The notes: generated by a model from the sequence alone, not told the origin. 64,000 nt of DNA from Lentimicrobiaceae bacterium (GCA_041660125.1 JBAZWY010000012.1:38499-102498), one strand, 5' to 3'; counted from the stretch's first letter, positions 3,379 to 47,053 are shown. Numbers and translations: made by a program.

Positions 3379-3383
3379 ACTAT

Positions 3384-3752: not shown

Positions 3753-3783
3753 AAAAAACGATAATTTTAAACTTTAAAAGAAC

Positions 3784-3937: not shown

Positions 3938-4506
3938 GTATTTAAAAGCGAATTCCAAAGAAATATGATGTAATGTTCGAAAATAATTAAAAATACTAAC
4001 TTTTCATCATTATAATATGCATCAATTTAGCATATGGTGAAACATTTGTAAAACATTTGTGAAACAACTAATAAGACCCTTTTGAAATTGGAAATCATGG
4101 ATTTAGCAGTTGAATTGCATTCGTTTATAGGCATTGCGATTAAATTCCTACTGCTTCCATCACTAAAAGCATTGAAAAATACCAATTTTAATGACCCGCA
4201 GCCTATAGGACACCGGGTCATAAACAGCATATTTATTACAATAATTTATAAACTGCTTATCCGTTTTAAACAAGTTGTAAGGGTTTTAAGTGGTTGGTTT
4301 TATAGAAATGATTTAAGAACAAGGATTAACGATTTAAGATTTTAGATGTACATCATTGATTTAGCGAAACTTCGAAAATCAAAAATCGATGTTCCTTGTT
4401 CGATATTCAAAAGAAATATCCTTAACAAAATGACATTGACCCAAAGGGGGATTCCTTTTTCTGTAATTTCCCAAAAACTGTTTCAGCACTATAACAATAA
4501 ATCAAA

Positions 4507-5608
4507 ATGAACATTGGCGAAATACTCATCTATCAAAATCCGGAAGGCAGCATCAAAGTTGATGTTCGGCTTGAGGAAGAAACGGTATGGCTCACACAGG
4601 AGCAAATGGCTATCCTTTTTGGAAAAGCCAGGAATACCATCACCGAACACATTCAAAATGTTTTTAAAGAAGGCGAGTTGGACGAAAAAGTGGTATGTCG
4701 GGATTTCCGACACACCACTCAACATGGCGCTATACAAGGAAAAACGCAGGAAATATCTGTAAAATATTATAACCTCGATGTTATTATTTCGGTAGGTTAT
4801 CGTGTAAAATCTCAACAAGGTACTCAGTTTCGCCTCTGGGCAACTCAAAGACTGAAAGAATATATCGTAAAAGGCTTTGCTTTAAACGACGAACGCTTTA
4901 AATCAGGCACTTCGCTGAATTATTTCAACGAACTGCAGCAGCGCATCCGCGAAATCCGCTTATCCGAACGTTTTTTCTATCAGAAAATAAAAGATATTTA
5001 CGCCACCAGCATCGATTATAACCCAAAGGACGAAAAAACGGTAGAGTTTTTTAAAATCGTTCAGAACAAACTGCTCTGGGCCATTTCGCAAAATACGGCA
5101 GCCGAATTGGTGTATCGCCGGGTTGATGCTTCACTACCCCTGCTCGGTATGCAGTCATTCGACAAAACCGGTACCAAAGCCATCGCTAAATCCGATGTAA
5201 ATATTGCCAAAAACTATTTGAAAGAGGATGAAACGAGCCATGCCAATAAATTGTTGCACAGGGTGATGGTTATTCATGGCGAGTTCCATGTGACCCGTAA
5301 AAATTAAGAAATAATCACATGAAATAAAACTCCTTGGATTGCTGGTAGAACAATACCTGGCCTTTGCCGAAACTATGGCACAGCAACAATCTCCTATGTA
5401 TATGCACGACTGGATTGCCCGTTTGGATAGCATTCTGCAATTAAATGGCCGCGAATTGCTCACCCATACTGGCAAAATCAGTCATGATTTAGCTTCGCAA
5501 AAATCAGCATTGGAATACGATAAGTTTAAAGCAACTCAAAATCTGCTCGAAAAAGAGCAAAGCCTGAAAGAGATTGAGGAAGATATAAAGAAACTGAAGA
5601 AGCCATAA
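4507..5608 (+). pseudogene. RhuM-family (virulence/defence-island associated) gene, interrupted by a 91-bp insertion
   Basis: The N-terminal part (frame 1, 4507-5232) reads MNIGEILIYQNPEG...NIAKNYLKEDE. The C-terminal part (frame 2, from 5324) continues IKLLGLLVEQYLAFAE...PMYMHDWIARLD...GKISHDLA. Joining across 5233-5323 restores one continuous RhuM-like protein. Confidence 0.8.
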
Positions 5609-14900: not shown

Positions 14901-15661
14901 ATAAAGTTATAGTCCACATACATTATATCTCCTGCCTTTACCGTAACAGTACGCTTTATTGCAGAACCCTCTGTGTTTGCATGACCAAGATAAGTATCAA
15001 TAGAGCCTGCCGGTTGTAACAGAAAGGCTTCTAAAGCTGTTATATCAATACCGGATTGGTTTACCAGGTGTGCTTGTAAAGCACCCTCTGTTGGGTTTAC
15101 GCCTCCATATACTCCAGTTATGGAAACAGCTCCGATTGTTTCCCAATCCGGACTAAATAAACCACTCTCAAATCCCAATGAAGACAAATTCAAAGGTGTT
15201 ACTGTAACTGTAGCAGTTACCGGGGCTTTTGTTGGATTGGTAGCTGTAAAGGAAGGTATATTGCCTGTGCCGCTGACGGCTAAGCCGATGGCTGTTGAAG
15301 TATTGGTCCAGATGTAGGTAGTACCTGCTATGGAACCGGTATAGTTAACGGCTGCTGTAGCACCGTTGTTACAAACCACCTGATCTTCAGGTTGATCCAC
15401 GTCGGGTGGCAGGTTAACTAACACTTCTCCCGTAATCGGAGATCCTGCGTAACTATTCAGCGTTGGTATTGCCGTGTAGTTTGTAACTCCGTTGCCTGAA
15501 AGTGTCTGGGCAATAGATGTTCCAGAACTAGCGGAAGTTCCGTCTAAACGTACAGAACTAATATTAGAATTCAGAACGCCCCAAAAGATATGCTCTTGTG
15601 CATTAACTGCCATCTGAAGTGCTAATAAGCATATGAATAATAAGTAACATGTTTTTTTCAT
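8936..15661 (-). CDS. Giant T9SS-secreted adhesin (PKD-like, cadherin-like, MBG and YDG repeat domains; type A C-terminal sorting domain)
   Basis: 2241-aa ORF with a signal peptide. Contains at least 6 PKD-like units (ATPSSAAICSGT...TPTLNSCAGSPITV), cadherin-like units (NDVNDVAPV, DENSANS..ATDPD), 5 MBG units (TKVYG..NPELTF.YSGW...NNYDFTYV) and 3 YDG units (KVYDG.T). The C-terminus YPNP...SGVYIGHV...KIVV is a T9SS sorting domain. Confidence 0.9.
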   Translation of the reverse strand: MKKTCYLLFICLLALQMAVNAQEHIFWGVLNSNISSVRLDGTSASSGTSIAQTLSGNGVTNYTAIPTLNSYAGSPITGEVLVNLPPDVDQPEDQVVCNNGATAAVNYTGSIAGTTYIWTNTSTAIGLAVSGTGNIPSFTATNPTKAPVTATVTVTPLNLSSLGFESGLFSPDWETIGAVSITGVYGGVNPTEGALQAHLVNQSGIDITALEAFLLQPAGSIDTYLGHANTEGSAIKRTVTVKAGDIMYVDYNFITTENIPSQWDAALLSISGNGLTMLASTYNSDFITIAGNPGNDIYQTGYKTFTYTFLSAGTYTIGLLPLNGYDSETNSGLLVDNFRINSGLTAEFVGTPKTFKFTINPTPTATATPSSAAICSGTTTNITLTSSPTGASFTWTAATASGTVNGTSASSGTSIAQTLSGNGVTNYTVTPTLNSCAGSPITVGVMLNPYPTITATPSSAVLCSGTATNIALTSSPTGSSFAWTAATASGTVNGTSASSGTSIAQTLSGDGVTNYTVSPTLNRCTGSPITVAITVNPNPVATATPSSAAICSGTATNIALTSSPTGASFAWTAAIAGGTVNGTSASSGTSIAQTLSGNGIANYTVTPTLNSCAGSPITVPITVNPLIVPTITGPASTCMTSTGNVYSTATGMTDYTWNVSAGGTITTGTNTNDINVTWNTAGAQTVSVNYNDVNSCSAATTTTVYNIMVKPNPVATATPSSAAINSGVATSIALTSAPTGSAFTWTTATAGGTVNGTSASSGTTIAQTLTGNGVVNYIVTPLLNGCSGTPITVEITVNGAPSDIALSASAVNENVTANTTAGTLSSTDQDTGNTFTYTLVSGTGSTDNAYFNISGSSLRITNSPDFETKNSYSVRIRTTDQGSLTYEKAFTITINDLNDVVPEISAAQTFTINENLANSSNIGIVGASDGDVGTTFSSWTITGGNTGDAFAINAATGNITVNNSSVLNRELVSSFSLTVTVSDGVNTSTPQIVTVNLNDVNDVAPVLTAALILHVTEQLPNGTTVGTALATDGDVTATTFQNWTITAGNSDGYFAINSSTGVITVVDNTVLNPFVNPNFTLTLTVSDGTNTSLSQTVLIVVDGVNDENPVITASQSFAIDENSANSTTVGQVLATDPDYGTVFQDWTLAAGNTGNAFAINPSTGVITVNNSAALNHETIASLYLSVTVNDGLHTSASQIVTVNLNDVNETPTDMALSNSTINENVAANSTVGTLSTTDPDVADSFTYSLVTGSGDTDNASCTISGNSLRITDSPDFETKSSYSVRVHTTDQGGLTYEKAFTVIVNPAPAEPTAGINSYTYDGTEKTASATVADGIVIDWYEVPSGGITISAPSGTNVGTYSAYAEARNSVTECVSVSRTLITLQITKAMLTVTSDAQTKVYDEVNPELTFKYSGWENGETESVLDAKPVASTIVDLTTEVGIYTDAIKIGSGSDNNYDFTYVANKFEVTKAMLTITTDAQTKVYGAANPELTFKYSGWKNNDTESVLDTKPVSSTTVDMTTEVGTYTDAITAGSGSDNNYDFTYVANEFEVTKAMLTITVDSQTKGYGAANPELTLEYSGWKNNDTESVLDTKPTAVTSVDLATEVGTYTDAITVSSGADNNYDFTYVTNDFEVTKAMLTVTADSQTKVYGKANPELTFEYNGWKNGDTESVLETKPTASTTVDQTTGFGTYTNAITLSPGTDNNYDITYVAADFAVTKAELTISGAKVENKVYDGNTDATITGALLSVVVGTDDVFLENYASGTFAQTGIGTGIDVTPAMTISGADISNYTLIQATGLKADITAKELRVNTAAATNKVYDGTTIAAIKGATLAGVVGTENVILSDPATGTFAQAGVGTDIEVTSAMTISGTDIANYMLTQPTGLKANITAKSLTVLNTVVVTNKFVDGNTTAVITSNGSLQGVVASDIDNVILAAKADYADANVGTNKTITVVYSLSGSAKGNYIVPANFVINGANISDNVALSPVITPAAGCEGSDLELGYTIVSGSSAEYKITFNEAALAAGIQNVSYTSMPSTSNNGVIQIPIPKGTREGSYQGTLRIRNEFGLESPEYTFSFSINLSSDYIIDKFEDVVLCDNSSKRFTAYQWYKDGVKIDGATKQFYCDPDGRVGVYSLEVVTIDGQTLISCGKGLNIPTPKKVFAYPNPMKADEVCTVNIFGFSDEELKNSELTVFNIQGVRVYQTKEVTNLNLMNLPAASGVYIGHVTSRNGIDYVFKIVVRQ

Positions 15662-33975: not shown

Positions 33976-35352
33976 TTATTTAAACGCCAACTCAATCGGA
34001 TGTGTCTGCCCTTCAATATCACTCAACATAGCGTCATCAAAAATAAAGTTAGTCAGCTTATTGTCGAGGTATTGCTGGTAGGCATACATATCGAAATAAC
34101 CATGACCGCTCAGGTTGAAAAGAATGGTTTTTGGCGTGTTTTCGGCTTTGGCTTTTAAAGCTTCACGGATAGTGTATGCAATGGCATGAGAAGTTTCAGG
34201 TGCCGGAAGAATTCCCTCTGCTTGTGCAAATTTTAAACCTGCTTCAAAACATTCAAGCTGATCAAGAGCCTGTGCTTCAACAATACCTTCGTTCACCAGC
34301 GCACTAATCAAAGGAGCTGCCCCATGATAACGTAATCCACCGGCATGAATTCCGGGCGGGATAAAATCGTGACCAAGTGTATGCATGGGTAGGAGAGGAG
34401 TCATGCCGGCCACATCGCCGAAATCGTACCTGAATTTTCCTTTTGTAAGTTTCGGACAGGAGGAAGGTTCAACGGAAATAAACCTGGTTTTCTTTTTCCC
34501 GTCGAGATTATGCCGTATAAAAGGGAAAGAAATTCCTGCAAAATTCGACCCACCGCCTAAACATCCGATAACGATATCAGGATAATCACCAATTTTTTCA
34601 AATTGCTTTTCAGCTTCGAGACCAATAATGGTCTGATGCAACAACACATGATTTAATACACTTCCAAGTGCGTATTTAGTATTTGGATCGGCTACAGCTA
34701 ATTCCATAGCTTCGCTGATAGCAATACCAAGACTACCCGGACTGTCGGGAAACTTTGCAAGTATATCACGTCCTGCTTTGGTGGTTAGGCTGGGCGATGC
34801 TTCAACTCTTGCATTCCAGAGGTTCATCAGCATTTTGCGATAGGGTTTCTGGTCGAAACTCACCTTTACCATAAAAACCTGCAAATCAATTCCAAAATGA
34901 TTGCATGCGAAAGCAAGTGCGCTGCCCCATTGTCCGGCACCGGTTTCGGTAGTGATTTTTTTAATGCCTTCCATCTTGTTGAAATATGCCTGTGGAATGG
35001 CCGTATTGGTTTTGTGCGAACCCGCCGGGCTTACACCTTCGTACTTGTAGTAGATTTTTGCCGGGGTACCAAGCATTTTTTCAAGGTTAACAGCCCTGTA
35101 AAGTGGTGAAGGTCTGAACATGCTGTATAGCTGGCGAACTTCATCAGGAATATTAATAAATCGTTCGCTCGACATTTCCTGACGAATCAATTCATCGGGG
35201 GAAATAGCGCTCATCGAGGCGCCGTCAATTGGTTTCAGTGTTCCCGGATGAAGAGGCGGCAACATTTTGCCTCCAAGGTCGGCAGCAATATTATACCATT
35301 TAGTTGGCATTTCTTCAGGTAAAAGCACAATGTTTCGTTTGTTGTTTTGCAT
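33976..35352 (-). CDS. trpB: TrpB2-type tryptophan synthase beta chain (stand-alone)
   Basis: About 458 aa from ATG 35352 (MQNNKRNIVLLPEEMPTKWYNI...). PLP-Lys motif SPAGSHKTNTA and GGGSNFAGI. The extended N-terminus is typical of TrpB2. Confidence 0.85.
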   Translation of the reverse strand: MQNNKRNIVLLPEEMPTKWYNIAADLGGKMLPPLHPGTLKPIDGASMSAISPDELIRQEMSSERFINIPDEVRQLYSMFRPSPLYRAVNLEKMLGTPAKIYYKYEGVSPAGSHKTNTAIPQAYFNKMEGIKKITTETGAGQWGSALAFACNHFGIDLQVFMVKVSFDQKPYRKMLMNLWNARVEASPSLTTKAGRDILAKFPDSPGSLGIAISEAMELAVADPNTKYALGSVLNHVLLHQTIIGLEAEKQFEKIGDYPDIVIGCLGGGSNFAGISFPFIRHNLDGKKKTRFISVEPSSCPKLTKGKFRYDFGDVAGMTPLLPMHTLGHDFIPPGIHAGGLRYHGAAPLISALVNEGIVEAQALDQLECFEAGLKFAQAEGILPAPETSHAIAYTIREALKAKAENTPKTILFNLSGHGYFDMYAYQQYLDNKLTNFIFDDAMLSDIEGQTHPIELAFK

Positions 35353-35386
35353 AACATTAAGTATTGAGTAAGAAAATGGATGGATT

Positions 35387-35420
35387 GAAAACGAAAAGGG
35401 CACATCGTAACGATGTGCCC
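35387..35420 (-). promoter_or_regulatory. Intrinsic terminator inside the trpB2 5' leader (attenuator)
   Basis: Minus strand GGGCACATCG-TTA-CGATGTGCCC followed by TTTTCGTTTTC, ending 35 nt upstream of the trpB2 start. Confidence 0.7.
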
Positions 35421-35459
35421 TTCAATTGAGTATTCTTATATTTATTTACATACCCGGGA

Positions 35460-35528
35460 TTACGCTACGATGTGCATTAGCCATCGGCGCCACCAATTAT
35501 TTGTAAGAGTATGTTTAAAATTGGTCAT
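35460..35528 (-). CDS. Trp-rich leader peptide (22 aa) of the trpB2 attenuator
   Basis: The minus-strand ORF atgaccaat...tggtggcgccgatgg...taa translates to MTNFKHTLTNNWWRRWLMHIVA*. It starts 17 nt downstream of the -7 box. Confidence 0.6.
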   Translation of the reverse strand: MTNFKHTLTNNWWRRWLMHIVA

Positions 35529-35545
35529 TGGGTGTATTTGTGATG

Positions 35546-35553
35546 CAAAGATA
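35546..35553 (-). promoter_or_regulatory. Candidate -7 box TATCTTTG driving the trp leader
   Basis: Plus-strand caaagata, positioned 17 nt upstream of the leader ATG (35528). Confidence 0.5.
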
Positions 35554-36022
35554 AATAAATAGTAATTCCGGTTGCAAAAAGATCCTTTTTTTTGCTTCAA
35601 TATTTCTTATCATTCATTCTTTAGTAATCCGTCAGATAAATCTGACGGCCAGGAAAGGTTCAAATCACACTTTGAACTTACATTAGAGAATTGATTTTTA
35701 ATCAGCTAATAATTGATCCAGACTTACTAAAGTCTGATATAACAATAGATTGACGATGGATTTATTACAGTTTGGCTTTAGCCAACTGAAAATAGAATAA
35801 ATACTTTATTTCGAATTAACACAATTTTTTCCCTCAGTGGATACCAGCACAATTAATTTATTTGAAGTGTTCTTATACCTTTTATTTCTGTATACTTAAC
35901 TATAGTTTTGCCGATTCACTACTATTGCATTTCAAAGCCTCATTTCTGATTGTGCAGCTGACTCAAGTTTATTGAAGACTTCTTTTGCATTTCGTTCATT
36001 AGGCTACAATTCCCATTTCAAT

Positions 36023-36030
36023 TACCTTTG
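36023..36030 (+). promoter_or_regulatory. Candidate -7 box TACCTTTG upstream of the methyltransferase gene
   Basis: Matches TAnnTTTG, 27 nt upstream of ATG 36057. Confidence 0.4.
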
Positions 36031-36056
36031 CACTCTTAATTTTATAATTATATTTT

Positions 36057-36812
36057 ATGCAAACAGCCGAACGCAGCTCCGGGCACGATCCTTCAGAACA
36101 GGTAATTTACAACAGGTGCCTTTATGCCTACAAGGCTGCTTCAGAATTAGTAAAAGGCAATATTATTGAACTTGGAAGCGGCGAAGGTTATGGTATTAAA
36201 ATGCTGGCTCCTTTGGCTCAACATTACCTTGCTGTCGATAAATTTGATACCGATATTTCGGGCCATGCCAATGTGGAATTTCGTAAACAATTATTGCCTT
36301 CTTTGGCCGGTATTGCTGATAATACATTTGATTTCGCGGTTACTTTCCAGGTTATTGAGCATATACAGGATGATAAAACTTTTATAAAGGAAATACACCG
36401 GGTACTTAAACCAGGTGGCGTTTTAATGCTTACCACGCCAAACCATCCGATGTCGCTAACCCGCAATCCATGGCATATCCGCGAATATACTGCTGATGAA
36501 CTGGCTTCGGTTGTTGGTAAAAGTTTTGGTAAAGTGGAGGTGAAAGGCGTATTTGGTAGTCCGGTTGTAATGGACTACCATGAAAGAAATAAAACTTCGG
36601 TTCATCGCATTACAAGGTTTGATATTTTAAAATTGCAATACAGGCTTCCGCGCCGGCTGTTGCAAATACCCTATGATATAATGAACCGGCTTAACCGCCG
36701 CAAATTGCTGAAAGGCAATACCGATATTGTGAATAAGGTTTCACTTTCCGATTTCTTTCTGAAAGGTACTACTGATAACTGTTTCGATTTGTTTGTTGTG
36801 GCTACGAAATAG
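36057..36812 (+). CDS. Class I SAM-dependent methyltransferase
   Basis: 251 aa. Motif I IIELGSGEGYG and post-I DKFD. LKPGGVLMLTTPN is typical of the Methyltransf_11/23 class. Confidence 0.8.
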   Translation: MQTAERSSGHDPSEQVIYNRCLYAYKAASELVKGNIIELGSGEGYGIKMLAPLAQHYLAVDKFDTDISGHANVEFRKQLLPSLAGIADNTFDFAVTFQVIEHIQDDKTFIKEIHRVLKPGGVLMLTTPNHPMSLTRNPWHIREYTADELASVVGKSFGKVEVKGVFGSPVVMDYHERNKTSVHRITRFDILKLQYRLPRRLLQIPYDIMNRLNRRKLLKGNTDIVNKVSLSDFFLKGTTDNCFDLFVVATK

Positions 36813-36902
36813 AAAATGGGGAAATAGAAAATGGGGAAATAGGGAAATAGGGAAATAGGGAAATAGGGAAATAGGGAAATAGGGAAATAGGGAAATAGGA
36901 AA
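36805..36902. repeat. Microsatellite-like tandem repeat: 14-bp unit x2, then GGGAAATA x about 8
   Basis: aaatagaaaatggggaaatagaaaatggggaaatagggaaatagggaaat... It begins in the last codons and stop of the methyltransferase gene. Confidence 0.9.
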
Positions 36903-37023
36903 CCTGACTTCGTCTTAAGACCAATCAGTATTTGTTCAGAAAAAACCAAGAAGGTTAGAGCTTGAATTTTCCTGTTCTTTTTTTTTAACATTGTGGATAT
37001 CATACTTTCAACCGAAAAGTGCA

Positions 37024-37136
37024 TTGTGCATAATGCCTGGTGCTCTGCACCCTGAGTAGTTGGTTTTGCATAAATACAGCAGTTATCGCTCTTTTTAATT
37101 CTGAGCGCAGAGCCCTAAGCACAGAGCACTATGCAC
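37024..37136. repeat. Imperfect inverted repeat (about 32-nt arms) with CACAGAG/CTCTGCAC words
   Basis: tgtgcataatgcctggtgctctgcaccctgag (37024-37055) mirrors ctgagcgcagagccctaagcacagagcactatgcaca (37100-37136). Confidence 0.7.
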
Positions 37137-37219
37137 AATTTATTCCCCACAATTTCCTTAAACAGAATTGTTTTTTTTAATACATTTCAACTTTTTTAGG
37201 CTATAAATTGAATCTTTCC

Positions 37220-37227
37220 TACATTTG
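37220..37227 (+). promoter_or_regulatory. Candidate -7 box TACATTTG upstream of hppA
   Basis: Matches TAnnTTTG, 38 nt upstream of ATG 37265. Confidence 0.45.
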
Positions 37228-37264
37228 ACGCACCTGAAATCATATTTTAACTAACCAATAATCC

Positions 37265-39676
37265 ATGTTTATGAAGAGAATTATCGCACTGCTTGCCTTC
37301 GCATTGGCGGCTTTTCCTGTGTTTGCCAGTGAGGCCGACCTTAAAATCCCTAGCCTGTCGCTTGATCAGAACAATTTGCTGTTGTTTGGATTTGTGATTT
37401 GTATTCTGGGATTACTCTTTGGATTTTACCAGTTTACTACGGTGAAAAAGCTTAGAGCTCACAAGAGTATGCTGGATGTTGCCCACATCATCTTCGAAAC
37501 TTGCAAGACTTACCTGATCCAGCAAGGGAAATTCCTGGTCATTCTGTTTGTTTTTATAGCAGCTTGTATCTCTTTCTATTTCGGATACCTGCAGGAAATG
37601 GGTTTTGGAGGCGTGTTGCTGATCCTTTCGTGGACGGTTGTTGGTATTCTGGGTTCATATGGTGTTGCCTGGTTTGGCATCCGTATGAATACACTTGCTA
37701 ATAGCCGAATGGCTTTTGCTTCGCTTGAACGCAAACCATTGAAATTACTGAATATTCCACTTGATGCCGGTATGAGTATCGGCGTTTTACTTGTAAGCGT
37801 TGAACTTATCATGATGCTTATTATCCTCCTGTTTATTCCACGCGAATTTGCAGGGGCTAGTTTTATTGGTTTTGCAATTGGTGAATCACTTGGTGCATCT
37901 GCACTTCGTATTGCCGGTGGTATTTTTACTAAAATTGCCGATATCGGTAGCGACCTGATGAAGGTGGTTTTCAAAATTAAGGAAGATGATCCACGTAACC
38001 CTGGTGTAATTGCCGATTGCACAGGTGATAATGCAGGTGACAGCGTTGGCCCTACAGCCGATGGTTTCGAAACGTATGGTGTTACCGGCGTTGCCCTCAT
38101 TAGTTTTATAGTGCTGGCTGTAATGCAGGTGGCTGATCAAACGCTTTTACTTACCTGGATTTTCCTTATGCGTATCCTGATGGTGATTACTTCCATTGCG
38201 GCATTCTATATCAATAAGGTTTATACAAATGCAAAATACCGCGATGCTGTAGATCTGGATTTCGAAAGACCTCTCACTACATTGGTTTGGATTACTTCTA
38301 TCCTTTCTATCATCGTAACTTTTGCTGTAAGCTATATTATGCTTGGCGACCTGGCAAATAACCTTTGGCTTACCTTGTCCATTATTATCAGTTGCGGAAC
38401 GCTTGGTGCAGCGCTGATTCCAGAATTCACCAAGATATTCACCAGCCCAAAATCGCATCACGTTAACGAAATTGTAACTGCATCACGCGAAGGCGGAGCA
38501 TCACTCAATATTCTATCGGGTCTGGTTGCCGGTAACTTCAGTGCTTTCTGGCAGGGAATGGTTTTCCTGGTTCTCATGTTTATAGCTTATTTTGCCTCTA
38601 CGCATGGGCTTGACAGTATGATGATCTATCCTTCGATTTTCGCTTTTGGCCTTGTAGCTTTCGGTTTCCTTGGAATGGGACCTGTAACCATTGCTGTTGA
38701 CAGTTATGGCCCGGTTACCGACAATGCCCAAAGTATCTACGAGCTTTCGCTTATCGAAGAAAATCCAAATGCAGCAAAGGAAATAGAACGTGATTTCGGA
38801 TTCAAACCTGATTTCGAAAATGCTAAACATTATCTCGAAGCTAATGATGGTGCAGGGAATACATTTAAAGCTACTGCTAAACCGGTTCTTATCGGTACAG
38901 CCGTGGTTGGGGCAACTACAATGATCTTTTCCCTAATCCTGCTGATCCGGAATAAATTTAATATCGAACCCGAAGCCATCCTCAATGTTCTGAATCCATA
39001 TACTATCCTTGGTTTCCTGGCTGGCGGGTCTGTAATTTACTGGTTTACGGGAGCATCAATACAAGCTGTTACAACCGGCGCTTACCGTGCAGTTGAATAT
39101 ATCAAGAAGAACATCCATCTCGACGAAGGTGCTGATAGCAGTGCTTCCATCGAAACATCCAAGGAAGTTGTGAAGATTTGTACCCAATATGCACAGACGG
39201 GGATGTTCAATATTTTCATCGCTATTTTCTCTTTTGCACTGGCTTTCGCATTCTTTGCAGGTTATCGCGATATGTCAGCCACTACCCCGACTCATATGTA
39301 TGCAGCTGCTTCATTCTTCGTAAGTTATTTGATTTCAATAGCTGTATTCGGTCTTTTCCAGGCGCTGTTTATGGCTAATGCCGGCGGTGCATGGGACAAT
39401 GCCAAGAAAGTAGTTGAAGTTGACCTTCGCGAAAAAGGCACTCCTTTACACGATGCATCTATCGTTGGCGATACTGTTGGCGATCCTTTCAAGGATACAT
39501 CATCGGTTGCACTCAATCCAATCATTAAATTCACTACACTGTTCGGACTTCTGGCCATGGAAATTGCCATCTCCGATAGCTTCTATTCAGTAGCACCTTA
39601 TGTTGGGGCAGGTTTCTTCCTGGTTGCCTTGTACTTTGTTTACCGTTCGTTTTATAAAATGCGGATTATTAAATAA
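37265..39676 (+). CDS. hppA: Membrane-bound proton/sodium-translocating pyrophosphatase
   Basis: 803 aa and polytopic. Signature segments DCTGDNAGDSVGPTADGFETYG, GGAWDNAKK and GDTVGDPFKDTSSVALNPIIKF. Confidence 0.95.
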   Translation: MFMKRIIALLAFALAAFPVFASEADLKIPSLSLDQNNLLLFGFVICILGLLFGFYQFTTVKKLRAHKSMLDVAHIIFETCKTYLIQQGKFLVILFVFIAACISFYFGYLQEMGFGGVLLILSWTVVGILGSYGVAWFGIRMNTLANSRMAFASLERKPLKLLNIPLDAGMSIGVLLVSVELIMMLIILLFIPREFAGASFIGFAIGESLGASALRIAGGIFTKIADIGSDLMKVVFKIKEDDPRNPGVIADCTGDNAGDSVGPTADGFETYGVTGVALISFIVLAVMQVADQTLLLTWIFLMRILMVITSIAAFYINKVYTNAKYRDAVDLDFERPLTTLVWITSILSIIVTFAVSYIMLGDLANNLWLTLSIIISCGTLGAALIPEFTKIFTSPKSHHVNEIVTASREGGASLNILSGLVAGNFSAFWQGMVFLVLMFIAYFASTHGLDSMMIYPSIFAFGLVAFGFLGMGPVTIAVDSYGPVTDNAQSIYELSLIEENPNAAKEIERDFGFKPDFENAKHYLEANDGAGNTFKATAKPVLIGTAVVGATTMIFSLILLIRNKFNIEPEAILNVLNPYTILGFLAGGSVIYWFTGASIQAVTTGAYRAVEYIKKNIHLDEGADSSASIETSKEVVKICTQYAQTGMFNIFIAIFSFALAFAFFAGYRDMSATTPTHMYAAASFFVSYLISIAVFGLFQALFMANAGGAWDNAKKVVEVDLREKGTPLHDASIVGDTVGDPFKDTSSVALNPIIKFTTLFGLLAMEIAISDSFYSVAPYVGAGFFLVALYFVYRSFYKMRIIK

Positions 39677-39699
39677 GCACGTGGTGTTACCTATTTATT

Positions 39700-39733
39700 A
39701 AAAATCCGGCTCAGAAATGGGCCGGATTTTTAG
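39700..39733. terminator. Terminator after hppA
   Basis: Stem AATCCGGC (39703-39710) / GCCGGATT (39721-39728), flanked by A- and T-runs. Confidence 0.7.
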
Positions 39734-39799
39734 TCTGATGAAAATTGTACCGGAATATATCAGAAAATAAGACACGTGTCAACGGGGCGCCGGTATATT

Positions 39800-41071
39800 T
39801 TATTTTTCAAATATTTTCTCCGCATTTTTATACATTAAATAATCTACTAAATCTATAACATCACTTATTGTTATCCAATTTTCAGTTACTAATTCAGTCA
39901 AGGCTTGAGCAATCCCTTTACGGGCGACAAAAGCATGCCCAATTAGATTCTCAACAATTTTATCATCACCACCAAACGTGAAGATTTTATTGTTTGGTAC
40001 GGTAAGTATAAATTTTTTCAAAAAATCTTTAGCTGCCAAAGGATTAATAGACCAGGACCAGCACATATCAATGTATGCGTTTGAATAACTTTTGGCCAAA
40101 GAAAGCATTTCCTCATAATGAGGATAACATAAATGGAAAAAGACAAATTTTGTATTTGGAGCTTGCCTGCACAGCGAAGCACAATCGGATGGGTTGTCTT
40201 TTACCCAGTGCATGTTCATTACATTATTCATTGCCCATTGGCCAGTATGCATTTTTACAGGCAATCCATATTCAGTAGCTTTGTCAACACAATACCAAAA
40301 CAAATGGTCCTGAAGTTTTTTTTCCTCCCCGGGGCTGATTATTTGTAAGCTGATTTTTCTTATAAATATTTTTTCAACTTCCTTAGCATCGACCCTTTCA
40401 AAATCAAGCCTTCTAAAATATGCATTCCCGATTTTCACGCCTTTTGAAATTTGGTTATATTCGGAAAACCACCAATCAATCAGCGAGTGCCAATCGGATA
40501 AAGAATTAATCTTAACATTTTCAGGAACAGAATAGGGCTTTATTGCTACCTGAATTAGTCCATTTAACGCAATATCCAGAAGCAATAAGTCGGGAGACTC
40601 ACTTTTTTTACATGCAATAACCGGGGAGTTTACATGACAATGTTTAATATTAGCTATATCCTGAATGATATATTTATAAAATCCTTTTTTTCTTGTTTGT
40701 TCGTATCTGTTTTGCAGTTCTATACTATTATCTTCCGAAATCTCGTCGATACCGTAAAGTATCCTGATTGTATTCCGAAATACTATTCCTGAAGCTGTGT
40801 TTTTTAGATATGGCCAATATTCCTTTAAGATTCCCCATTTATTAATTGGATTGACCTGTTTTGAAAACAAACTATCCATCTGTTCTACTGATATTCCTGC
40901 TGAAATCAAGTCGAAGCCAAAATAATGATTAAGCAGTAACGCCCAATCATCACACGGAATTATTGGTTCAATACAACCCAAACGTTCAGACTCATCAACC
41001 AAATGCTCATGAGTATCAATGAATGGCGTTTCAAAAACCTTTTTCTCTATTAGATCTTTATGCTTTTCCAT
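39800..41071 (-). CDS. Metal-dependent amidohydrolase-fold (TIM-barrel) protein
   Basis: 423 aa with an N-terminal HxH metal motif FIDTHEHL. Lies in the AT-rich island. Confidence 0.6.
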   Translation of the reverse strand: MEKHKDLIEKKVFETPFIDTHEHLVDESERLGCIEPIIPCDDWALLLNHYFGFDLISAGISVEQMDSLFSKQVNPINKWGILKEYWPYLKNTASGIVFRNTIRILYGIDEISEDNSIELQNRYEQTRKKGFYKYIIQDIANIKHCHVNSPVIACKKSESPDLLLLDIALNGLIQVAIKPYSVPENVKINSLSDWHSLIDWWFSEYNQISKGVKIGNAYFRRLDFERVDAKEVEKIFIRKISLQIISPGEEKKLQDHLFWYCVDKATEYGLPVKMHTGQWAMNNVMNMHWVKDNPSDCASLCRQAPNTKFVFFHLCYPHYEEMLSLAKSYSNAYIDMCWSWSINPLAAKDFLKKFILTVPNNKIFTFGGDDKIVENLIGHAFVARKGIAQALTELVTENWITISDVIDLVDYLMYKNAEKIFEK

Positions 41072-41216
41072 TTAATCATTTCTTTTTCGTTGAGCAGTCC
41101 TTATATTGGCGCTACTGCTGAAGCGTCCGAAAATAGGGACAAACAGTGCGGGTGACGAAGCTTCAAATATACTCCAAAACCCGCCATTTGTTAAAGCCCC
41201 CTTTGTTGGTCGCTGC

Positions 41217-41798
41217 TTAGTATAAATATATCCATGGAATCAGTCTTTTTGTCCTTTTTTGATATTCAATATATTTTTGTCCCATTTGCTCAATCATAAA
41301 ACGTTCCTCTGTTTTTATCCGGTAAATGTATCCGGTTAAAACCGGGATAATCATTAATAAAACAGACAACCAATTTGATAATGAAGTTGCAATCCCGGTA
41401 AAAATAATCAATTGCCCAAAATACCCGGGATGTCTGATGTATTTATATAATCCTGTTTCAATCAACTCATGATTCTCAATTTGTGTCACCGTATATGTGA
41501 AGTATTGTTTAAGAGTTAATATGGATTTTATTCTTATAATTAATCCAGCTATTGTCAATATTGCACCTATTACAAAGAATGTATCCCAATAATAAATCCT
41601 GCCTGTTCGTGTTGCACCGATGCTAAAAGAAAGAAAATAACCAATCCCGATAAAAATGGTGAGAATCCAGATACTTGCTTTATCTCCTGACTTAACGATA
41701 TCCTTTTTCCGTTTTTGTTTTTGCCGCATGCTCATGAATAACTCAAAGAATCCATATAAATAGGAGAAAGCTATAATTATGATAAGCTTTGTATTCAT
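41217..41798 (-). CDS. Isoprenylcysteine carboxyl methyltransferase (ICMT/PEMT)-family membrane methyltransferase
   Basis: 193 aa with 4-5 TM helices. C-terminal motif GLYKYIRHPGYFGQLI...EERFM. Confidence 0.7.
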   Translation of the reverse strand: MNTKLIIIIAFSYLYGFFELFMSMRQKQKRKKDIVKSGDKASIWILTIFIGIGYFLSFSIGATRTGRIYYWDTFFVIGAILTIAGLIIRIKSILTLKQYFTYTVTQIENHELIETGLYKYIRHPGYFGQLIIFTGIATSLSNWLSVLLMIIPVLTGYIYRIKTEERFMIEQMGQKYIEYQKRTKRLIPWIYLY

Positions 41799-41892
41799 AG
41801 TAACGGTTTGTTTTTAAGTTCTGACTAACGCTCGCGTCGGGAGATACGTGCCAGCGAGAGGGATCTATATGTATATTCGTAAAAATTTATTA

Positions 41893-42747
41893 CTACATTA
41901 TTTTTTCAAATGGTTTCATAATATTATCAAAACGAAAATCAATATTTTTCAATTCCTTCTCTTTTTCAAAAATTATAAAAGTGTGCTTATTTAATAGATT
42001 CTTAGGATTAATATTTATTTTCAACTGTTCTGTATAAACATTTTTCATATATATTTTAGGTATTTCTTTATGTTTTTTGATATTTTTAAAAAATCGTAAA
42101 TACGAACTAATAAAAATAAGTGGATAAAAAAATGGAAATAAAAATAGGGAACCTTTACTTATCCGTAAATATCTTATTTCCTTAATTTTAAATCCTGAAA
42201 GCTTTGCAATAATTTTAAGTTTTTGCAATCCTATGAGAAAAATATGTCCATGATAAATTTCATTAGTTAAAGTTTTGTCAGCCATCCAAATATCATCTAT
42301 TTCATTTGGTGGCATTAGTTTAGTGTTTTCACTTTCAAATAATAAATAACTGAGTTTAGATGCTAAATTTGAATATGAAGGCGTTGTTATTAAAAGTTTC
42401 CCATTAGTTTTTAGTACTCGATTAAATTCTTTAAACGTCTTTAATTGGTCACTAAAATGCTCAATGCCTTCCTGGCAAATTAGCATATCTGCATAATTAT
42501 CCATTGTAGGAATTTTATCAACAATATCAGCACGTTTACATTCGATATTCTTTAACATGAAATATTCAGGGAACAAATCAAAAGCCTCAACTTTTGCTCC
42601 ATTCTCTAATAATATTTCCGTCGTAACACCATTACCTGCTGGTATATCTAATACAATTTTATTTTTTAACTCTTCTTTTATGCTGTCCAAATACTTTTTT
42701 ACATAAAATTTTGGACTTTTCGGATTTATTACATAATTATCTATCAT
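41893..42747 (-). CDS. Class I SAM-dependent methyltransferase
   Basis: 284 aa. Motif I VLDIPAGNGVTT, acidic EAFD, LKTNGKLLITTP. Very AT-rich. Confidence 0.7.
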   Translation of the reverse strand: MIDNYVINPKSPKFYVKKYLDSIKEELKNKIVLDIPAGNGVTTEILLENGAKVEAFDLFPEYFMLKNIECKRADIVDKIPTMDNYADMLICQEGIEHFSDQLKTFKEFNRVLKTNGKLLITTPSYSNLASKLSYLLFESENTKLMPPNEIDDIWMADKTLTNEIYHGHIFLIGLQKLKIIAKLSGFKIKEIRYLRISKGSLFLFPFFYPLIFISSYLRFFKNIKKHKEIPKIYMKNVYTEQLKININPKNLLNKHTFIIFEKEKELKNIDFRFDNIMKPFEKIM

Positions 42748-42966
42748 TATTTATCTATTTAAGTTGTAATTCTGTTTTGGGATTACGCATAACCGTTTGC
42801 AGTATTAAACGTGCCAGATTGTGAAGCTTCGACTGTATCCCATGATTAAACCACCATACGGTATGAATCGCTTGCAAAACTTCTAAACCCGGCATGCTTT
42901 ATGATCCTGTATCGGACGCTATCAATCCAATTTATACTGCAAACGGGGTAAATTTATTGATTATTG

Positions 42967-43251
42967 TTAATATTCCAAAGTATAATTGCCAATACCATCC
43001 GATTTAGCAGTGTAAGCACATCCCACCCTGGGCCTATATAATATAATATCACTGAAACCATCATAGTTATAATCTAAGGAAATGATTCGATCTCTCGTGT
43101 CATATAAATCATAGTCGGCAATGCCATCATTATTGTAAACAGTAGAAAACATTCCATTGCCATTTGATTTCAACAGATACCAGGCTGAACCACCCGGCCT
43201 ATAACACATACTATCATCATATCCATCACCATTATAATCTAATGATATGGC
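42967..43251 (-). pseudogene. 5'-truncated FG-GAP/VCBS-repeat protein fragment
   Basis: The open frame has no upstream start. It contains the repeats LDYNGDGYDD and LDYNYDGFSDIILY. It is truncated at the junction with the hppA 3' remnant. Confidence 0.55.
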
Positions 43252-43273
43252 TTAATCCTGGGGTTGATCAAAG

Positions 43274-43376
43274 TTTCTATTCCGTTGCACCTTGCATTGG
43301 CGGTGTGTTTTTCCTGATTGCTCTATTCTTTACTTTGTTTACCGTTCATTTTACAAAATGCGTATTGTAAAGTAAA
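43274..43376 (+). pseudogene. Displaced, frameshifted copy of the hppA 3' end
   Basis: Aligns with 39579-39676. It encodes SFYSVAP.IG..FFL.A and, after a 5-nt indel, YFVYRSFYKMRIVK* (compare YFVYRSFYKMRIIK* in hppA). Confidence 0.8.
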
Positions 43377-43396
43377 ATCAACTAACCAAAATTTGA

Positions 43397-43432
43397 AGCC
43401 CCGCCTTTCTTAATTGTAGCGGGGCTTTTTTA
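43397..43432 (+). terminator. Terminator following the hppA 3' remnant
   Basis: Stem GCCCCGC (43399-43405) / GCGGGGC (43419-43425), followed by TTTTTT. Confidence 0.75.
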
Positions 43433-43541
43433 TAGATACTACTCCCGGACAAAAGCTATACAATAAGTTTCATAATTGCCGGAATCGGAGTAATTTTGCA
43501 GCCTGAACAAAACAGACAGCTTTTGATTGATAGAGGTAGAA

Positions 43542-43707
43542 GTTGCTTGTTTCTGGTTTCTTGATGCTGGTTGATACTATATATCGAGTTATTTGAGTGC
43601 TAAAAAGCTGAAAATATTCATTCAGCAATTAAACGCAGCACCAACAAGTAAGTAACATATACACAGTAACTTGCAACCAGCAACCAGCAACCAGCAACCA
43701 GTGCCAG
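43542..43707. repeat. CAACCAG x4 heptamer tract and a degenerate inverted copy about 100 bp upstream
   Basis: gttgcttgtttctggtttcttgatgctggttg (43542-43573) mirrors gcaaccagcaaccagcaaccagcaaccagtgccag (43673-43707). Confidence 0.7.
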
Positions 43708-43760
43708 TCACACAAATACTAATAATACAAAATCAAAAATCACATTTAAAGCAATACATT

Positions 43761-44471
43761 ATGGGAAGAGCATTTGAATTTCGCAAAGCACGCAAAATGA
43801 AGCGTTGGGGCAATATGGCCAGGGTTTTTACCCGCCTTGGTAAGGATATCGAAATGGCAGTAAAATCTGGTGGGCCCGATCCTGCCAGTAACTCCAGGCT
43901 GCGCTTACTTATTCAGACAGCTAAAAGCGAAAATATGCCGAAAGATAATATCGACCGCGCTATAAAACGTGCTATTTCGAAGGATTCGTCCGATTATAAA
44001 GAAGTGGTGTACGAAGGGTATGCACCTCATGGAGTGGCAATAGTTGTTGAAACGGCTACCGATAATCCTACACGCACAGTGGCTAATGTCCGTATGTATT
44101 TCAATAAATATGGCGGTAGCCTGGGCACAACAGGAATGTCTGATTTTTTATTCGACCGTAAATGCACGTTCAAAGTAGCTATGAAAGAAGGTATTGATAT
44201 TGAAGAACTTGAACTCGAAATGATTGATTTCGGGTTGGATGAAATATTTGTGGATGAAGGCGAAATCGTGCTTTATGCTGATTTTCATAACTTCGGGTCC
44301 ATACAAAAATACCTGGAAGAAAATAAATTTGAGATCCGGACTTTTGCTTTTGAGCGTATCCCCAACGATACCAAGGAATTAAATGAAGAGCAGCAAGCCG
44401 ATGTGGAGAAATTGATTGAAAAAATGGAAGAGGATGATGATGTGATCAATGTGTTTCACAATATGCGGTAG
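43761..44471 (+). CDS. YebC/PmpR-family transcriptional regulator
   Basis: 237 aa from ATG 43761. MGRAFEFRKARKMKRWGNMARVFTRLGKDI... is the canonical YebC N-terminus. Confidence 0.9.
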   Translation: MGRAFEFRKARKMKRWGNMARVFTRLGKDIEMAVKSGGPDPASNSRLRLLIQTAKSENMPKDNIDRAIKRAISKDSSDYKEVVYEGYAPHGVAIVVETATDNPTRTVANVRMYFNKYGGSLGTTGMSDFLFDRKCTFKVAMKEGIDIEELELEMIDFGLDEIFVDEGEIVLYADFHNFGSIQKYLEENKFEIRTFAFERIPNDTKELNEEQQADVEKLIEKMEEDDDVINVFHNMR

Positions 44472-44600
44472 GGATTTGAAGGGTTTGAAGAGTTTCAGTG
44501 TTACACAGTTTAAGGGTTAGGACTCGCTTTGTCGCTCTTCGGCTTGTTGTCCAGCTTGCCTTCCCTTTATACCTCTATACCTCTATACTTTGAGTCTTAT
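44471..44600. repeat. Intergenic word-repeat element, copy B (related to 29552-29680)
   Basis: gggatttgaagggtttgaagagtttcag...gtttaagggttaggactcgctttgtcgctcttcggcttgttgtcc...tatacctctatacctctatac, lying between convergent genes. Confidence 0.7.
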
Positions 44601-44863
44601 TTCTCTACCTGCTTCCGGTTTCTGTATATCAGTCCCAGCATAGTCAACGAGAAAAAAAGCACAATAATATTAGTTGCAATAATCGAGAAGCTATGTATTA
44701 AAATACCATAAACCAGCCAGAGTGTTGTACTAACTGAAGCAATCAGGAACATAGGAAGAGAAATATCTTTGGTGGATTTTGATTTCCAGGTCTTTATCAC
44801 CTGTGGCAGGAATGTGGTACACGACAAAGCACCTGCCATGATTCCAATAACTTCGTTATTCAT
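44597..44863 (-). CDS. SemiSWEET / PQ-loop family small transporter
   Basis: 88 aa with 3 TM helices and the PQ motif FLPQVIKTWKSKS. Confidence 0.8.
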   Translation of the reverse strand: MNNEVIGIMAGALSCTTFLPQVIKTWKSKSTKDISLPMFLIASVSTTLWLVYGILIHSFSIIATNIIVLFFSLTMLGLIYRNRKQVEK

Positions 44864-44936
44864 CTGGATTTGAAGTTGGTGATTGGTTTTTCTATGTTAT
44901 AGTGTCAGACACCCTGCGGATGTATAGACACTGAGG

Positions 44937-46226
44937 TTAATTAAAAATTTTATTCAATGCTATTTGTAATTCTTCTATCGACGGATTAATATCGAATACT
45001 TCGGATGGCTTCAAATAGTGCAATGTTTTGCCGCTTTTAAATTTTTCCTCACCGCCGCCAGTAATATTCAGCATAACTATTGCTTCAGGTTCCACTTTGT
45101 TTTTATTTATAGCCTGTATCAGCGAAGCAACAGCAACTGCCGCTGCCGGATGAATATCATTGCCTTCGTGTTCCAGGAATAATTTCGCTGCCTGTTGAGC
45201 TTTCTCATTAGTAACAGATAGAACTTCGCCTTTTGTATGGGTAAGTGCGTCAAAAAGTCCGCCGATAGGAGGGTAGGGAGGCTTGCGATTCGAAAGTACT
45301 TTGGCATCAATTATTTCTACTTCTTTTCGTGCAGTATCATGGTCAAATGCCAGCATTTCGCGCGAATTGGCATTCCACGCGTTCATAATAGGTATAAAAG
45401 GATGATTCTGCGATACCATCAGTTTCATTATTTTATTTCCAAACCGGCCATCGTCAATCAGGCGCAAATTAGCTTCCCATGCGGCAATGGCACCAGTTCC
45501 GCTTCCGATGGCCTGGAAATAGTAATCAGGAATTTCACCTATGTATGTAGTGGCTGAAAGCATGGTTGTACCCATTCCATCGCGGCGGGCGACATTTTTA
45601 GCGCCGCCTTCTGCTACGAATCCTTCGCATTCGCAAGCAAGGTTCGAAAGGTGAATAGCATCAAAATAATCAGAGCCTTTGCGCGTAGCAATCAATTTCA
45701 CACAGTTGCTTAGAGGTTTTTCAAACCACAAAGCATCCAGGTTATCCTCAGGCACACATAAGAGCAAAGGAATATTATTATCGGAACACACTTTGGCAAA
45801 AGCCCGGGCTGTATTTCCTGCCGAAGCTACTACGAGCACTTTTGGCTGAGCCGGATCCATCCGGGCGCAAACCGAATATGCCTCGGTTTCTTTAAATGAA
45901 CATGTAGTCATTTCTACCCCTTTTTCGGGCCAGTAGCCGCTGAAAGTGATGTACAGATTCTTTAATCCTAGTTGAGTAGCCAGTCCTGAACTTTTATAAG
46001 TTATCGGAGCCGACGATCCATTCAGCATCCGGTTTACAGGCAGCCAGTCGGCAAAGCGATAGATTCCGTATGAAGCATCCTTCGGATTTAACTGTTTATG
46101 TTTGTATATAGCTCTGATTAGTCCGGGTTTTGACTGGTTGGGTGCATCCAGCAGCCATCCGGTATCTTCAAAAAGTTCGCCTGTAACCAGTGATTGTAAT
46201 GTGTATTCGGTAGCCTTGAAATCCAT
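44937..46226 (-). CDS. Threonine-synthase-fold PLP enzyme, possibly cysteate synthase
   Basis: About 429 aa from ATG 46226; a TAnnTTTA-like box at 46258-46265 argues against the upstream ORF start 46343. PLP-Lys context TCSFKETEAYS and ASAGNTARAFA. The cysteate-synthase call is from family resemblance only. Confidence 0.6.
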   Translation of the reverse strand: MDFKATEYTLQSLVTGELFEDTGWLLDAPNQSKPGLIRAIYKHKQLNPKDASYGIYRFADWLPVNRMLNGSSAPITYKSSGLATQLGLKNLYITFSGYWPEKGVEMTTCSFKETEAYSVCARMDPAQPKVLVVASAGNTARAFAKVCSDNNIPLLLCVPEDNLDALWFEKPLSNCVKLIATRKGSDYFDAIHLSNLACECEGFVAEGGAKNVARRDGMGTTMLSATTYIGEIPDYYFQAIGSGTGAIAAWEANLRLIDDGRFGNKIMKLMVSQNHPFIPIMNAWNANSREMLAFDHDTARKEVEIIDAKVLSNRKPPYPPIGGLFDALTHTKGEVLSVTNEKAQQAAKLFLEHEGNDIHPAAAVAVASLIQAINKNKVEPEAIVMLNITGGGEEKFKSGKTLHYLKPSEVFDINPSIEELQIALNKIFN

Positions 46227-46444
46227 AAATATTAATCTAGTGCCTGTTTGAAGGCTGTAAAGATAAAAAAAAGGACTCCAATGGAAGGAATCCTTTTTAA
46301 TAATTCGTTGAATAACCAATTTCAGGAATCCTATTATTTTCATAATCTGTCAGCTCATTGTGCAGGTATTTAATTACTTTTGACTTTTTAAATTCAATCA
46401 AAGTTTTCAAACTGAATAATGAATTGGTTTAAAGTTACCACTAT

Positions 46445-47053
46445 ATGGAAATCAAAATCTTGATCTCTGCCTTTGTTGCTATTCTTGCACTTATAAATCC
46501 GGTACATAAAATTATGGTAATAAGTTCGTTGCAGGATCAGTACTCGAAAAATGAATTAAAATACCTCTCTTCAAAATCATCACTTACCGCACTGATTATC
46601 CTGATTTCCTTTTTGTTTCTTGGGCATTTTATTTTCACCTATGTGTTTCATATTGAGTTATATGCTTTCATGGTAACATGTGGAGTAGTTTTGTTTTATA
46701 ATGGAATTACCGGCTTGCAAAAAGGCAACTTCCTTCAGCTTGATCAGAATGTGAAATTGGTTGACCTGTCAGCAGTTCCAATTGCCATGCCTATGATTGC
46801 CGGACCGGCAACCATCACGGCAGCCGTCACATTTCCGGAGCACTACGGTAAGCTTGTCACGATTATTGCAATTGGCATTGCAATTGCCGTTAACTTACTT
46901 TTGATGCTTAACGCGATACGAATAGGCAACCTGCTGAACAGGTTTAACCTGATGAATGCACTTATCCGTATTACAGGTTTGATTGTTGCTACAATTGGTG
47001 CACAAATGATCTTTACAGGGATTTCAATTTTTATAGCAAACTTAAAGGGATAA
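46445..47053 (+). CDS. MarC-family (UPF0056) integral membrane protein
   Basis: 202 aa with 6 TM helices and an N-terminal LALINPV motif. Confidence 0.75.
   Translation: MEIKILISAFVAILALINPVHKIMVISSLQDQYSKNELKYLSSKSSLTALIILISFLFLGHFIFTYVFHIELYAFMVTCGVVLFYNGITGLQKGNFLQLDQNVKLVDLSAVPIAMPMIAGPATITAAVTFPEHYGKLVTIIAIGIAIAVNLLLMLNAIRIGNLLNRFNLMNALIRITGLIVATIGAQMIFTGISIFIANLKG

Follow-up and report, generated by a model that had tools for sequence, protein, structure and literature searches.

Integration of DNA that has only one end homologous to the chromosome has been described in Escherichia coli, Streptococcus pneumoniae, Acinetobacter baylyi and Pseudomonas stutzeri (PMC3240628). When linear DNA with one homologous end was given to E. 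coli, 56 of the 60 integrants had duplicated the homologous segment, via recircularization of the fragment and a single crossover, and the duplication length was 109–950 bp in the 14 integrants that were sequenced (PMC3240628). In classical homology-facilitated illegitimate recombination, the joints show 3–10 bp of microhomology and deletions (PMC3240628). In polymorphic toxin loci, such as Rhs, contact-dependent inhibition (CDI) and type VI secretion system (T6SS) effector–immunity arrays, displacement of the 3' end that leaves 'orphans' has been proposed (PMC5361080). Here, we analyzed the 3' end of hppA, the gene for a membrane pyrophosphatase, and the AT-rich islet located behind it in a 64-kb stretch of DNA from a Lentimicrobiaceae bacterium (GCA_041660125.1 JBAZWY010000012.1:38499–102498, 64,000 nucleotides). 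This stretch is called the window hereafter, and all coordinates are window positions. The nearest database proteins are annotated as those of a Lentimicrobiaceae (Bacteroidales) metagenome-assembled genome. The islet is an ordinary horizontal-transfer scar, which is well resolved, and nothing found indicates self-mobility.

The hppA gene (37265–39676, plus strand) is an intact open reading frame (ORF) of 803 aa, and its PF03030 homologues are 100–83% identical. The last 99 nt of the gene (39578–39676, copy 1) recur as a direct repeat at 43272–43375 (copy 2, plus strand). The two copies are 76% identical over 104 aligned columns (blastn, E = 4e-15), and this is the sole significant secondary match in the window. 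The gap-free core of the repeat (39632–39676 versus 43331–43375) shows 87% identity, and the longest identical block between the copies is 17 nt long (39632–39648). Copy 1 encodes SFYSVAPYVGAGFFLVALYFVYRSFYKMRIIK and the stop codon. Copy 2 reads SFYSVAPCIGGVFFLIAL, then a frameshifting insertion of 5 nt (approximately 43322–43326), and then YFVYRSFYKMRIVK and a stop codon; it is a pseudogene, in which a Tyr-to-Cys change is also present. Between the copies, homology weakly extends past the stop codons and through the terminators to a common AATAAG (39771 and 43463). The duplication is composed of 99 nt of coding sequence and approximately 95 nt of flank.

The terminator after copy 1 (39697–39734, plus strand) folds with −25 kcal/mol (z −6.6), and that after copy 2 (43395–43428, followed by a T-run) folds with −17.5 kcal/mol (z −3.6). 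A simple consensus terminator scan missed both hairpins, and folding confirmed them; Rfam gave nothing at E ≤ 0.1 over 35000–47000. The GC content of the islet is 0.329, as compared with 0.432 for hppA and 0.398 for the whole window, and it is the minimum of 303 sliding 3.6-kb windows. The initial annotation, which was made from the bare sequence, had described a repeat of about 100 nt with roughly three quarters of positions matching by eye, a copy 2 that encodes SFYSVAP before a 5-nt indel, a terminator for each copy, and DNA between the copies that is more AT-rich than the flanks. These descriptions agree with the values given above.

Close relatives were found by a protein search and by exact-protein look-ups; among the matches listed by scans of genome and metagenome contigs with the full hppA protein, distant loci predominated. 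In locus L081 (protein P0004) and loci L082–L084 (P0005), hppA is directly followed by yebC, and nothing is inserted. This adjacency is the empty site for which a search in related strains had been proposed. The hppA of L081–L084 is 97% identical to that of the window at the protein level and approximately 87% identical at the DNA level. In the window, the yebC/TACO1-family gene (43761–44471, plus strand; Pfam) lies beyond copy 2, and it is the native downstream neighbour of hppA, as it adjoins hppA in L081–L084. In these four loci, the last 99 nt of hppA, the terminator and the intergenic DNA are colinear with window positions 43272–43507 at 76–78% identity. According to this colinearity, copy 2 and everything to the right of it correspond to the native gene end and its flank. 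Copy 2 shares 85% identity with L082 and, as in the closest relatives, belongs to the GGVFFLIAL...RIVK type. The terminator behind it (type I, 43395–43434, plus strand; GAAGCCCCGC...GCGGGGCTTTTTT) matches the terminators of L082 and L081. In L178, a 347-kb contig, another single gene is located between hppA and yebC without duplication.

The end of the intact gene shows a different origin. The last 33 residues of the window HppA have no amino-acid difference from P0034, which is 92% identical overall, and they have 3–4 differences from the closest overall relatives, P0004–P0008. P0034 is carried by L174–L176, and L174 shares one sample with L088. When the window hppA is compared with that of L174, the identity is 0.79 for the gene body and 0.97 from 39557 to the stop codon (108 of 111 positions; binomial P = 2e-8). 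Against the empty-site relative L082, the identity is 0.88 for the body and 0.81 for the last 111 nt. Thus, the hppA body is of the native type to about 39557–39577, and the last 99 nt are of the donor type, with copy 1 being 97% identical to L174 and L176 versus 79% upstream. The switch from recipient to donor type at 39557–39580 coincides with the left edge of the duplication, and both insert junctions fall on one point when placed in recipient coordinates. The two copies differ in 17 codons, 11 of which are synonymous; therefore, they diverged as functional orthologues in separate lineages before copy 2 was pseudogenized. By these comparisons, copy 1 is demonstrably foreign, an imported replacement of the hppA 3' end, and copy 2 is identified as the displaced native end. 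With the empty site, the foreign copy 1 and the displaced native copy 2, the initial proposal of an insertion into the 3' end of hppA with the reading frame reconstituted is upheld.

The DNA that follows copy 1 also has its counterpart in L174. The imported terminator (type II, AAAAATCCGGC...GCCGGATTTTT) corresponds in alignment to the L174 terminator, and the changes in the stem keep the pairing. The imported post-terminator stretch (39745–39771, plus strand) ends in TCAGAAAATAAG, in the form of TC(A/T)GAAAATAAG, and is weakly aligned also with the native flank at 43437–43463. It is the last DNA that aligns with this flank, and the cargo starts after it. The window, L087 and L088 have one occurrence of the motif, and L174–L176 have two. 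The first cargo gene (39800–41071, minus strand) encodes an Amidohydro_2-family protein of 423 aa (Pfam, E = 2.7e-14), and it shows 90% nucleotide identity to a gene downstream of hppA in L174 and L177. In these two loci, an extra module of approximately 985 nt follows the post-terminator stretch, and then the amidohydrolase gene. Beyond the amidohydrolase gene, a 219-aa ORF, a DDE transposase gene and a redoxin gene are present, which differ from the genes of the window. Since the terminator, the AATAAG stretch and the hppA-downstream amidohydrolase gene match L174/L177, the imported DNA has the appearance of ordinary chromosome from a related lineage. That the replacement end was borne by an element is not supported, because the terminator and the post-terminator stretch match chromosomal DNA of L174 in position and form, although they align weakly.

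The contigs of the L174 lineage break at module boundaries, and L177 reaches only the insertion sequence (IS) transposase gene and the redoxin gene. The breaks suggest heterogeneity between strains. The module of approximately 985 nt (L174 11811–12822, also in L175 and L176) separates the amidohydrolase gene from the hppA terminator, and an imperfect direct repeat of approximately 20 nt that contains ATAC(A/G)TCTGAAAATAAG is present on its two sides. A perfect 15-nt inverted repeat was also seen by eye (AAAAGTTGGGGAGTA / TACTCCCCAACTTTT, approximately 640 nt apart), and the module resembles a miniature inverted-repeat transposable element (MITE).

The other cargo genes are also located on the minus strand. 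The second (41217–41798) encodes an ICMT/PEMT-family membrane methyltransferase of 193 aa, and the third (41893–42747) encodes a class I S-adenosylmethionine (SAM) methyltransferase of 284 aa with a GC content of 0.25; both were assigned by Pfam. The SAM methyltransferase gene in L087 is approximately 98% identical at the nucleotide level. A unit of 907 nt (window 41883–42786; L169 9959–10865), in which this gene is accompanied by 39 nt on its upstream side and 10 nt on its downstream side, has 94.7% identity to its counterpart in L169, where it sits in an unrelated context between DUF3089 and Fib_succ_major genes. The 284-aa methyltransferase is widespread in unrelated contexts, including L171 and L173, with 70–94% protein identity, and proteins annotated as TA06 and Silvanigrellaceae are among the homologues. 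This AT-rich gene behaves like a highly mobile single gene. The spacer behind it (42748–42966) has a 46-aa ORF without a family match and a 16-nt inverted repeat (42793–42808 / 42931–42946). Since L087 does not conserve one of the arms, the inverted repeat is unlikely to be functional.

The last feature of the islet is an FG-GAP pseudogene remnant (42967–43275, minus strand). Its Pfam score of 25.4 is just below the cut-off of 26.9, and the assignment comes from its nucleotide identity of 77% to L171 11907–12182, which is the 3' part of an intact FG-GAP gene of 388 aa. The remnant is the 3' third of a gene of approximately 388 aa. The break in the coding sequence falls at about codon 284 of 388, with approximately 280 codons lost at the 5' end. 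The four minus-strand genes of the initial annotation were thereby confirmed, three by Pfam and FG-GAP by homology, and the search for the island genes elsewhere located the amidohydrolase gene in L174/L177, the methyltransferase gene in L169 and the FG-GAP gene in L171. The end of the FG-GAP fragment had been placed at 43251; this has to be corrected, because the homology reaches 43275 (codons N-F-D-Q) with an in-frame TAA at 43253–43255. As the hppA remnant begins at 43272, the two overlap by 4 nt. This AGTT (43272–43275) can be read as codons N-F of FG-GAP or as codons S-F of the hppA remnant, and it may represent microhomology, as judged from the L171 homologue in place of the donor's own FG-GAP gene. 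Since a truncated coding sequence abuts the hppA remnant with an overlap of only 4 nt, the right junction looks like an illegitimate joint, and not like the arm of an attachment (att) site.

The same structure is found in a sibling lineage. L087, which comes from a different sample, has hppA DNA 97.7% identical to that of the window, and it shares with the window the duplication, the junction and the 5-nt indel of the remnant. The islet of L087 lacks 39774–41876, with the amidohydrolase and ICMT genes, and also lacks 240 nt of the FG-GAP remnant (43008–43247). The breakpoints of the large deletion carry AC microhomology. The long islet of the window is probably the ancestral form, because the same contiguity from hppA to the amidohydrolase gene is present in L174. 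L087 has thus probably lost 2.1 kb by deletion, and the islet is decaying there. A third assembly, L088, was made independently from the strain of the window itself (99.7% identity), and it spans the left junction and the islet up to 43049. As separate assemblies reproduce the junctions (both in L087, the left one in L088), the junctions are not an assembly artefact. The structure is real, and it is older than the split between the window strain and L087.

Over 34084–44344, the identity between the window and L087 is strongly patchy, and blocks of 100% alternate with blocks of 81–90% inside single genes. The hppA gene itself is a mosaic relative to L081, L082 and L086. Such patchiness suggests that homologous recombination is frequent between Lentimicrobiaceae populations that occur together. 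A transfer of the whole hppA and islet between the window and L087 was considered and rejected, since the identity is merely patchy across the entire region.

We propose, with moderate confidence, that the islet was formed by a one-off insertion, in which homology anchored one end and the other end was joined illegitimately. A single horizontal transfer would have taken place in the common ancestor of the window strain and L087. The donor would be another Lentimicrobiaceae lineage, similar to L174 and L086, and a contiguous chromosomal fragment of 3.7 kb would have been inserted 99 nt before the stop codon of hppA. The fragment would have started inside the donor hppA, with the last 99 nt, the terminator and the post-terminator stretch, would have further carried the minus-strand amidohydrolase, ICMT-like methyltransferase and SAM methyltransferase genes, and would have ended within the FG-GAP gene. 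The left junction would have been made by homology within hppA with the frame preserved, and the right junction by illegitimate joining at the level of microhomology (AGTT) to the same recipient point. The intact hppA now ends in donor sequence, and the native end, freed from selection, has gained the frameshift.

The molecular pathway is what we infer from this product, and the event may be placed in the family of homology-facilitated illegitimate recombination. In the nearest experimental counterpart, a trimmed linear fragment recircularizes and is integrated by a single crossover, and the homologous segment is duplicated; break repair with a template switch would be expected to give the same product. 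The features found at hppA are a left switch inside the gene (39557–39580), a non-homologous right junction, and a duplication as in the recircularization form. A homologous anchor located far upstream in hppA was rejected, because the donor-type switch sits at the boundary of the duplication.

Several observations weigh against this explanation. The classical form of homology-facilitated illegitimate recombination usually results in loss, not duplication, of recipient DNA (PMC3240628), and such a deletion is not seen at hppA. A single crossover by RecA must be resolved in the first few nucleotides of a homology of approximately 194 nt with approximately 78% identity, and copy 2 is already of the recipient type from position 3, certainly from position 28. 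One recipient coordinate for both junctions, together with the exact frame, is also what a site-specific recombinase gives. The donor-type tract of 117 nt is 97% identical to L174, while the terminator is approximately 60–78% identical (sliding 60-nt windows) and the amidohydrolase gene 90%. Since a simple transfer from an L174-like donor fails to explain this tract, one has to invoke either subsequent recombination of short tracts or a nucleotide-level constraint. In addition, the L174 contigs stop short of the distal end of the island, where a displaced remnant could sit.

The crossover at the edge and the conservation of the 117-nt tract are the weaknesses of the one-off recombination, and they keep alive a model with an integrase acting in trans. 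According to this alternative, which we consider possible but doubtful, a circular element with the hppA 3' end in its attP would have been integrated by a tyrosine or serine recombinase that has since been lost or was supplied in trans. The crossover would have used a short core close to the repeat's left edge (e.g. TTCTATTC), by which hppA was reconstituted and the native end displaced; the element would now be a decayed or satellite one. Direct repeats derived from the 3' end of the target gene flank the islet and the site is uninterrupted in L081–L084, as such an element requires. Also in accordance with it, the insertion occupies one point, copy 1 is entirely donor-type and copy 2 entirely recipient-type. 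The switch is located within the first 3–27 nt of the repeat, where the identical runs are only 7–8 nt long (TTCTATTC, GCACCTT); against the model, the longest identical block, of 17 nt, lies away from it. The tract of the hppA end is much better conserved between the two lineages than either flank, which would fit a functional site, but this end is followed by a terminator and a post-terminator stretch that correspond to the ordinary L174 chromosome. The DNA that should be the P arm is the interior of the truncated FG-GAP coding sequence, right up to the junction.

For recombinases, Pfam was run on the four ORFs of the islet, on the spacer ORF of 46 aa and, across the 64 kb, on every ORF of 120 aa or more that lies outside other genes. 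None of these ORFs, in the islet or in the window, showed a recombinase, integrase, excisionase or transposase domain. The initial annotation had stated that no integrase is present, and this is borne out; the recombinase search that it had proposed for the genome was run on the 64 kb, and none is encoded there. Approximately 43% of mapped genomic islands lie in protein-coding genes (PMC12424338), and the direct repeat of approximately 20 nt around the L174 module hints at repeated site-directed insertion, but the hppA site itself was not reused: among 153 hppA loci with downstream sequence, a second hppA gene end is present only in the window and L087, as one common event. The islet DNA has no match in plasmid and phage collections, and two degenerate patterns, for the hppA end and the putative attP junction, gave nothing in viral contigs. 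In the literature searched, hppA was not reported as an attachment site, and genomic islands in Lentimicrobiaceae were not found. The designation of the islet as the remnant of a site-specific integrative element is not supported, with no recombinase, a junction inside FG-GAP and a single use in 153 loci; no defining feature except the repeats and the empty site supports it.

A broader idea is that the last 117 nt or so of hppA act as a portable 'hook' among co-occurring Lentimicrobiaceae, either as the site of an in-trans recombinase or as a preferred homology anchor. We regard this as improbable. If it were true, DNA downstream of hppA would be repeatedly carried between species with the gene end renewed each time, as a housekeeping-gene counterpart of the 3'-end displacement in polymorphic toxin loci. 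It would explain the 97% tract between diverged flanks (79% for the hppA body, approximately 60–78% for the terminator stretch), and also why the modules past the AATAAG motif differ in every lineage examined.

All explanations other than recombination and site-specific integration are, even taken together, quite improbable. The first of them, which is very unlikely, is an integron-like cassette array, that is, an attC cluster without an integrase, in which the cargo genes would be cassettes with structured recombination sites between them and the content difference of L087 would reflect gain or loss of cassettes. All cargo is on one strand, the spacers of 94–219 nt are somewhat GC-richer, the methyltransferase gene occurs as a 907-nt unit in an unrelated context, and the sibling lineages differ in content. 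By reading, each spacer has a GTT-containing heptamer, like the GTTRRRY core, beside a short stem; a matching R'' box is absent by inspection, and an intI gene is absent. No sequence similarity was seen among the spacers, or between them and the rest of the window or the fetched loci, and no repeat family or repetitive extragenic palindromic (REP) elements were found among them. The breakpoints of L087 are not at G|TT sites and resemble a deletion at AC microhomology. Because no common motif was found by inspection and the sole long inverted repeat has one arm that is not kept in L087, the integron/attC reading of the spacers was rejected; moreover, it leaves the hppA duplication wholly unexplained. 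A local tandem duplication of the hppA end with divergence and later gene insertion, or a chimeric assembly, is scarcely credible even though the direct repeats are only 3.7 kb apart and the window comes from a metagenome-assembled contig, since copy 1 is phylogenetically discordant with the gene body through its 97% identity to another lineage and so is no in-place duplication, and since a k-mer chimera cannot make a join with a 4-nt overlap or a frameshifted remnant common to L087, whose junctions moreover come from another sample.

Some other features of the window were observed. In the intergenic region 43444–43743, the window and L087 are only 43–67% identical, while the flanking genes are 85–99% identical. 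Four CAACCAG heptamers are located in a run just upstream of yebC, with an inverted partner approximately 100 nt before (43546–43573, 43674–43701). The octamer GAAATAGG is repeated twelve times in tandem (36806–36899) in the space between hppA and the methyltransferase gene upstream of it. L088, which is otherwise identical, changes to another upstream context (an FGGY kinase gene) exactly within the GAAATAGG repeat; this is either a rearrangement or an assembly break. Far from hppA, the region 3030–5307 contains a tRNA-Pro gene (3030–3105, minus strand), a 23S-rRNA-intervening-sequence-family gene (3384–3752) and a RhuM-family gene (4507–5307), and it could be a small islet beside a tRNA gene. 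The ORF at 8936–15661 encodes a surface protein of 2241 aa with cadherin, MBG, YDG and PKD domains, and it has a weak, sub-threshold match to the Por sorting tail of type IX secretion.

The hppA islet is a natural example of a small accessory block that enters via the end of an essential-type gene, leaving the gene undisrupted, apparently without a recombinase encoded by an element. It is possible to identify the donor lineage, the recipient allele, both junctions, the empty site and a sibling copy in decay. For island-finding heuristics, the locus is a caution that a duplicated gene 3' end and AT-rich cargo are insufficient to call an integrative element. Beyond this caution, new biology is not evident at the islet.

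Compared with the islands catalogued by TIGER/Islander-type methods (PMC12424338), the islet has in common the direct repeats of the target 3' end, the reconstituted gene, the empty site and the cargo of different composition. Unlike these islands, it has no integrase, which is a defining requirement of those catalogues. Its junction lies in a truncated coding sequence, the site is not reused in other lineages, and ordinary DNA from the chromosome of a related lineage makes up the replacement end. As for the orphans of Rhs, CDI and T6SS loci (PMC5361080), incoming DNA with upstream homology replaces the 3' end, and the old end persists downstream. In contrast to the toxin loci, hppA encodes a housekeeping ion pump, and the new end has the same function, with 6 of 32 aligned residues being different. 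Neither an immunity gene nor a sign of diversifying selection is present at the islet, and there is one remnant in place of an array.

The islet is thus to be compared with one-end-homology integration (PMC3240628). The event at hppA is natural and took place between diverged lineages that are approximately 80% identical, whereas the experimental system is a laboratory construct, and the apparent crossover at hppA is at the extreme edge of a short diverged homology. It shows a duplication, unlike the deletions of classical homology-facilitated illegitimate recombination. As in one-end-homology integration, the foreign DNA enters by a single homologous end, its opposite end is joined illegitimately with microhomology being slight or absent, and a recombinase encoded by an element is unnecessary. 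As in the recircularization route, a direct duplication flanks the insert, with a length of 109–950 bp there and 99–194 nt here.

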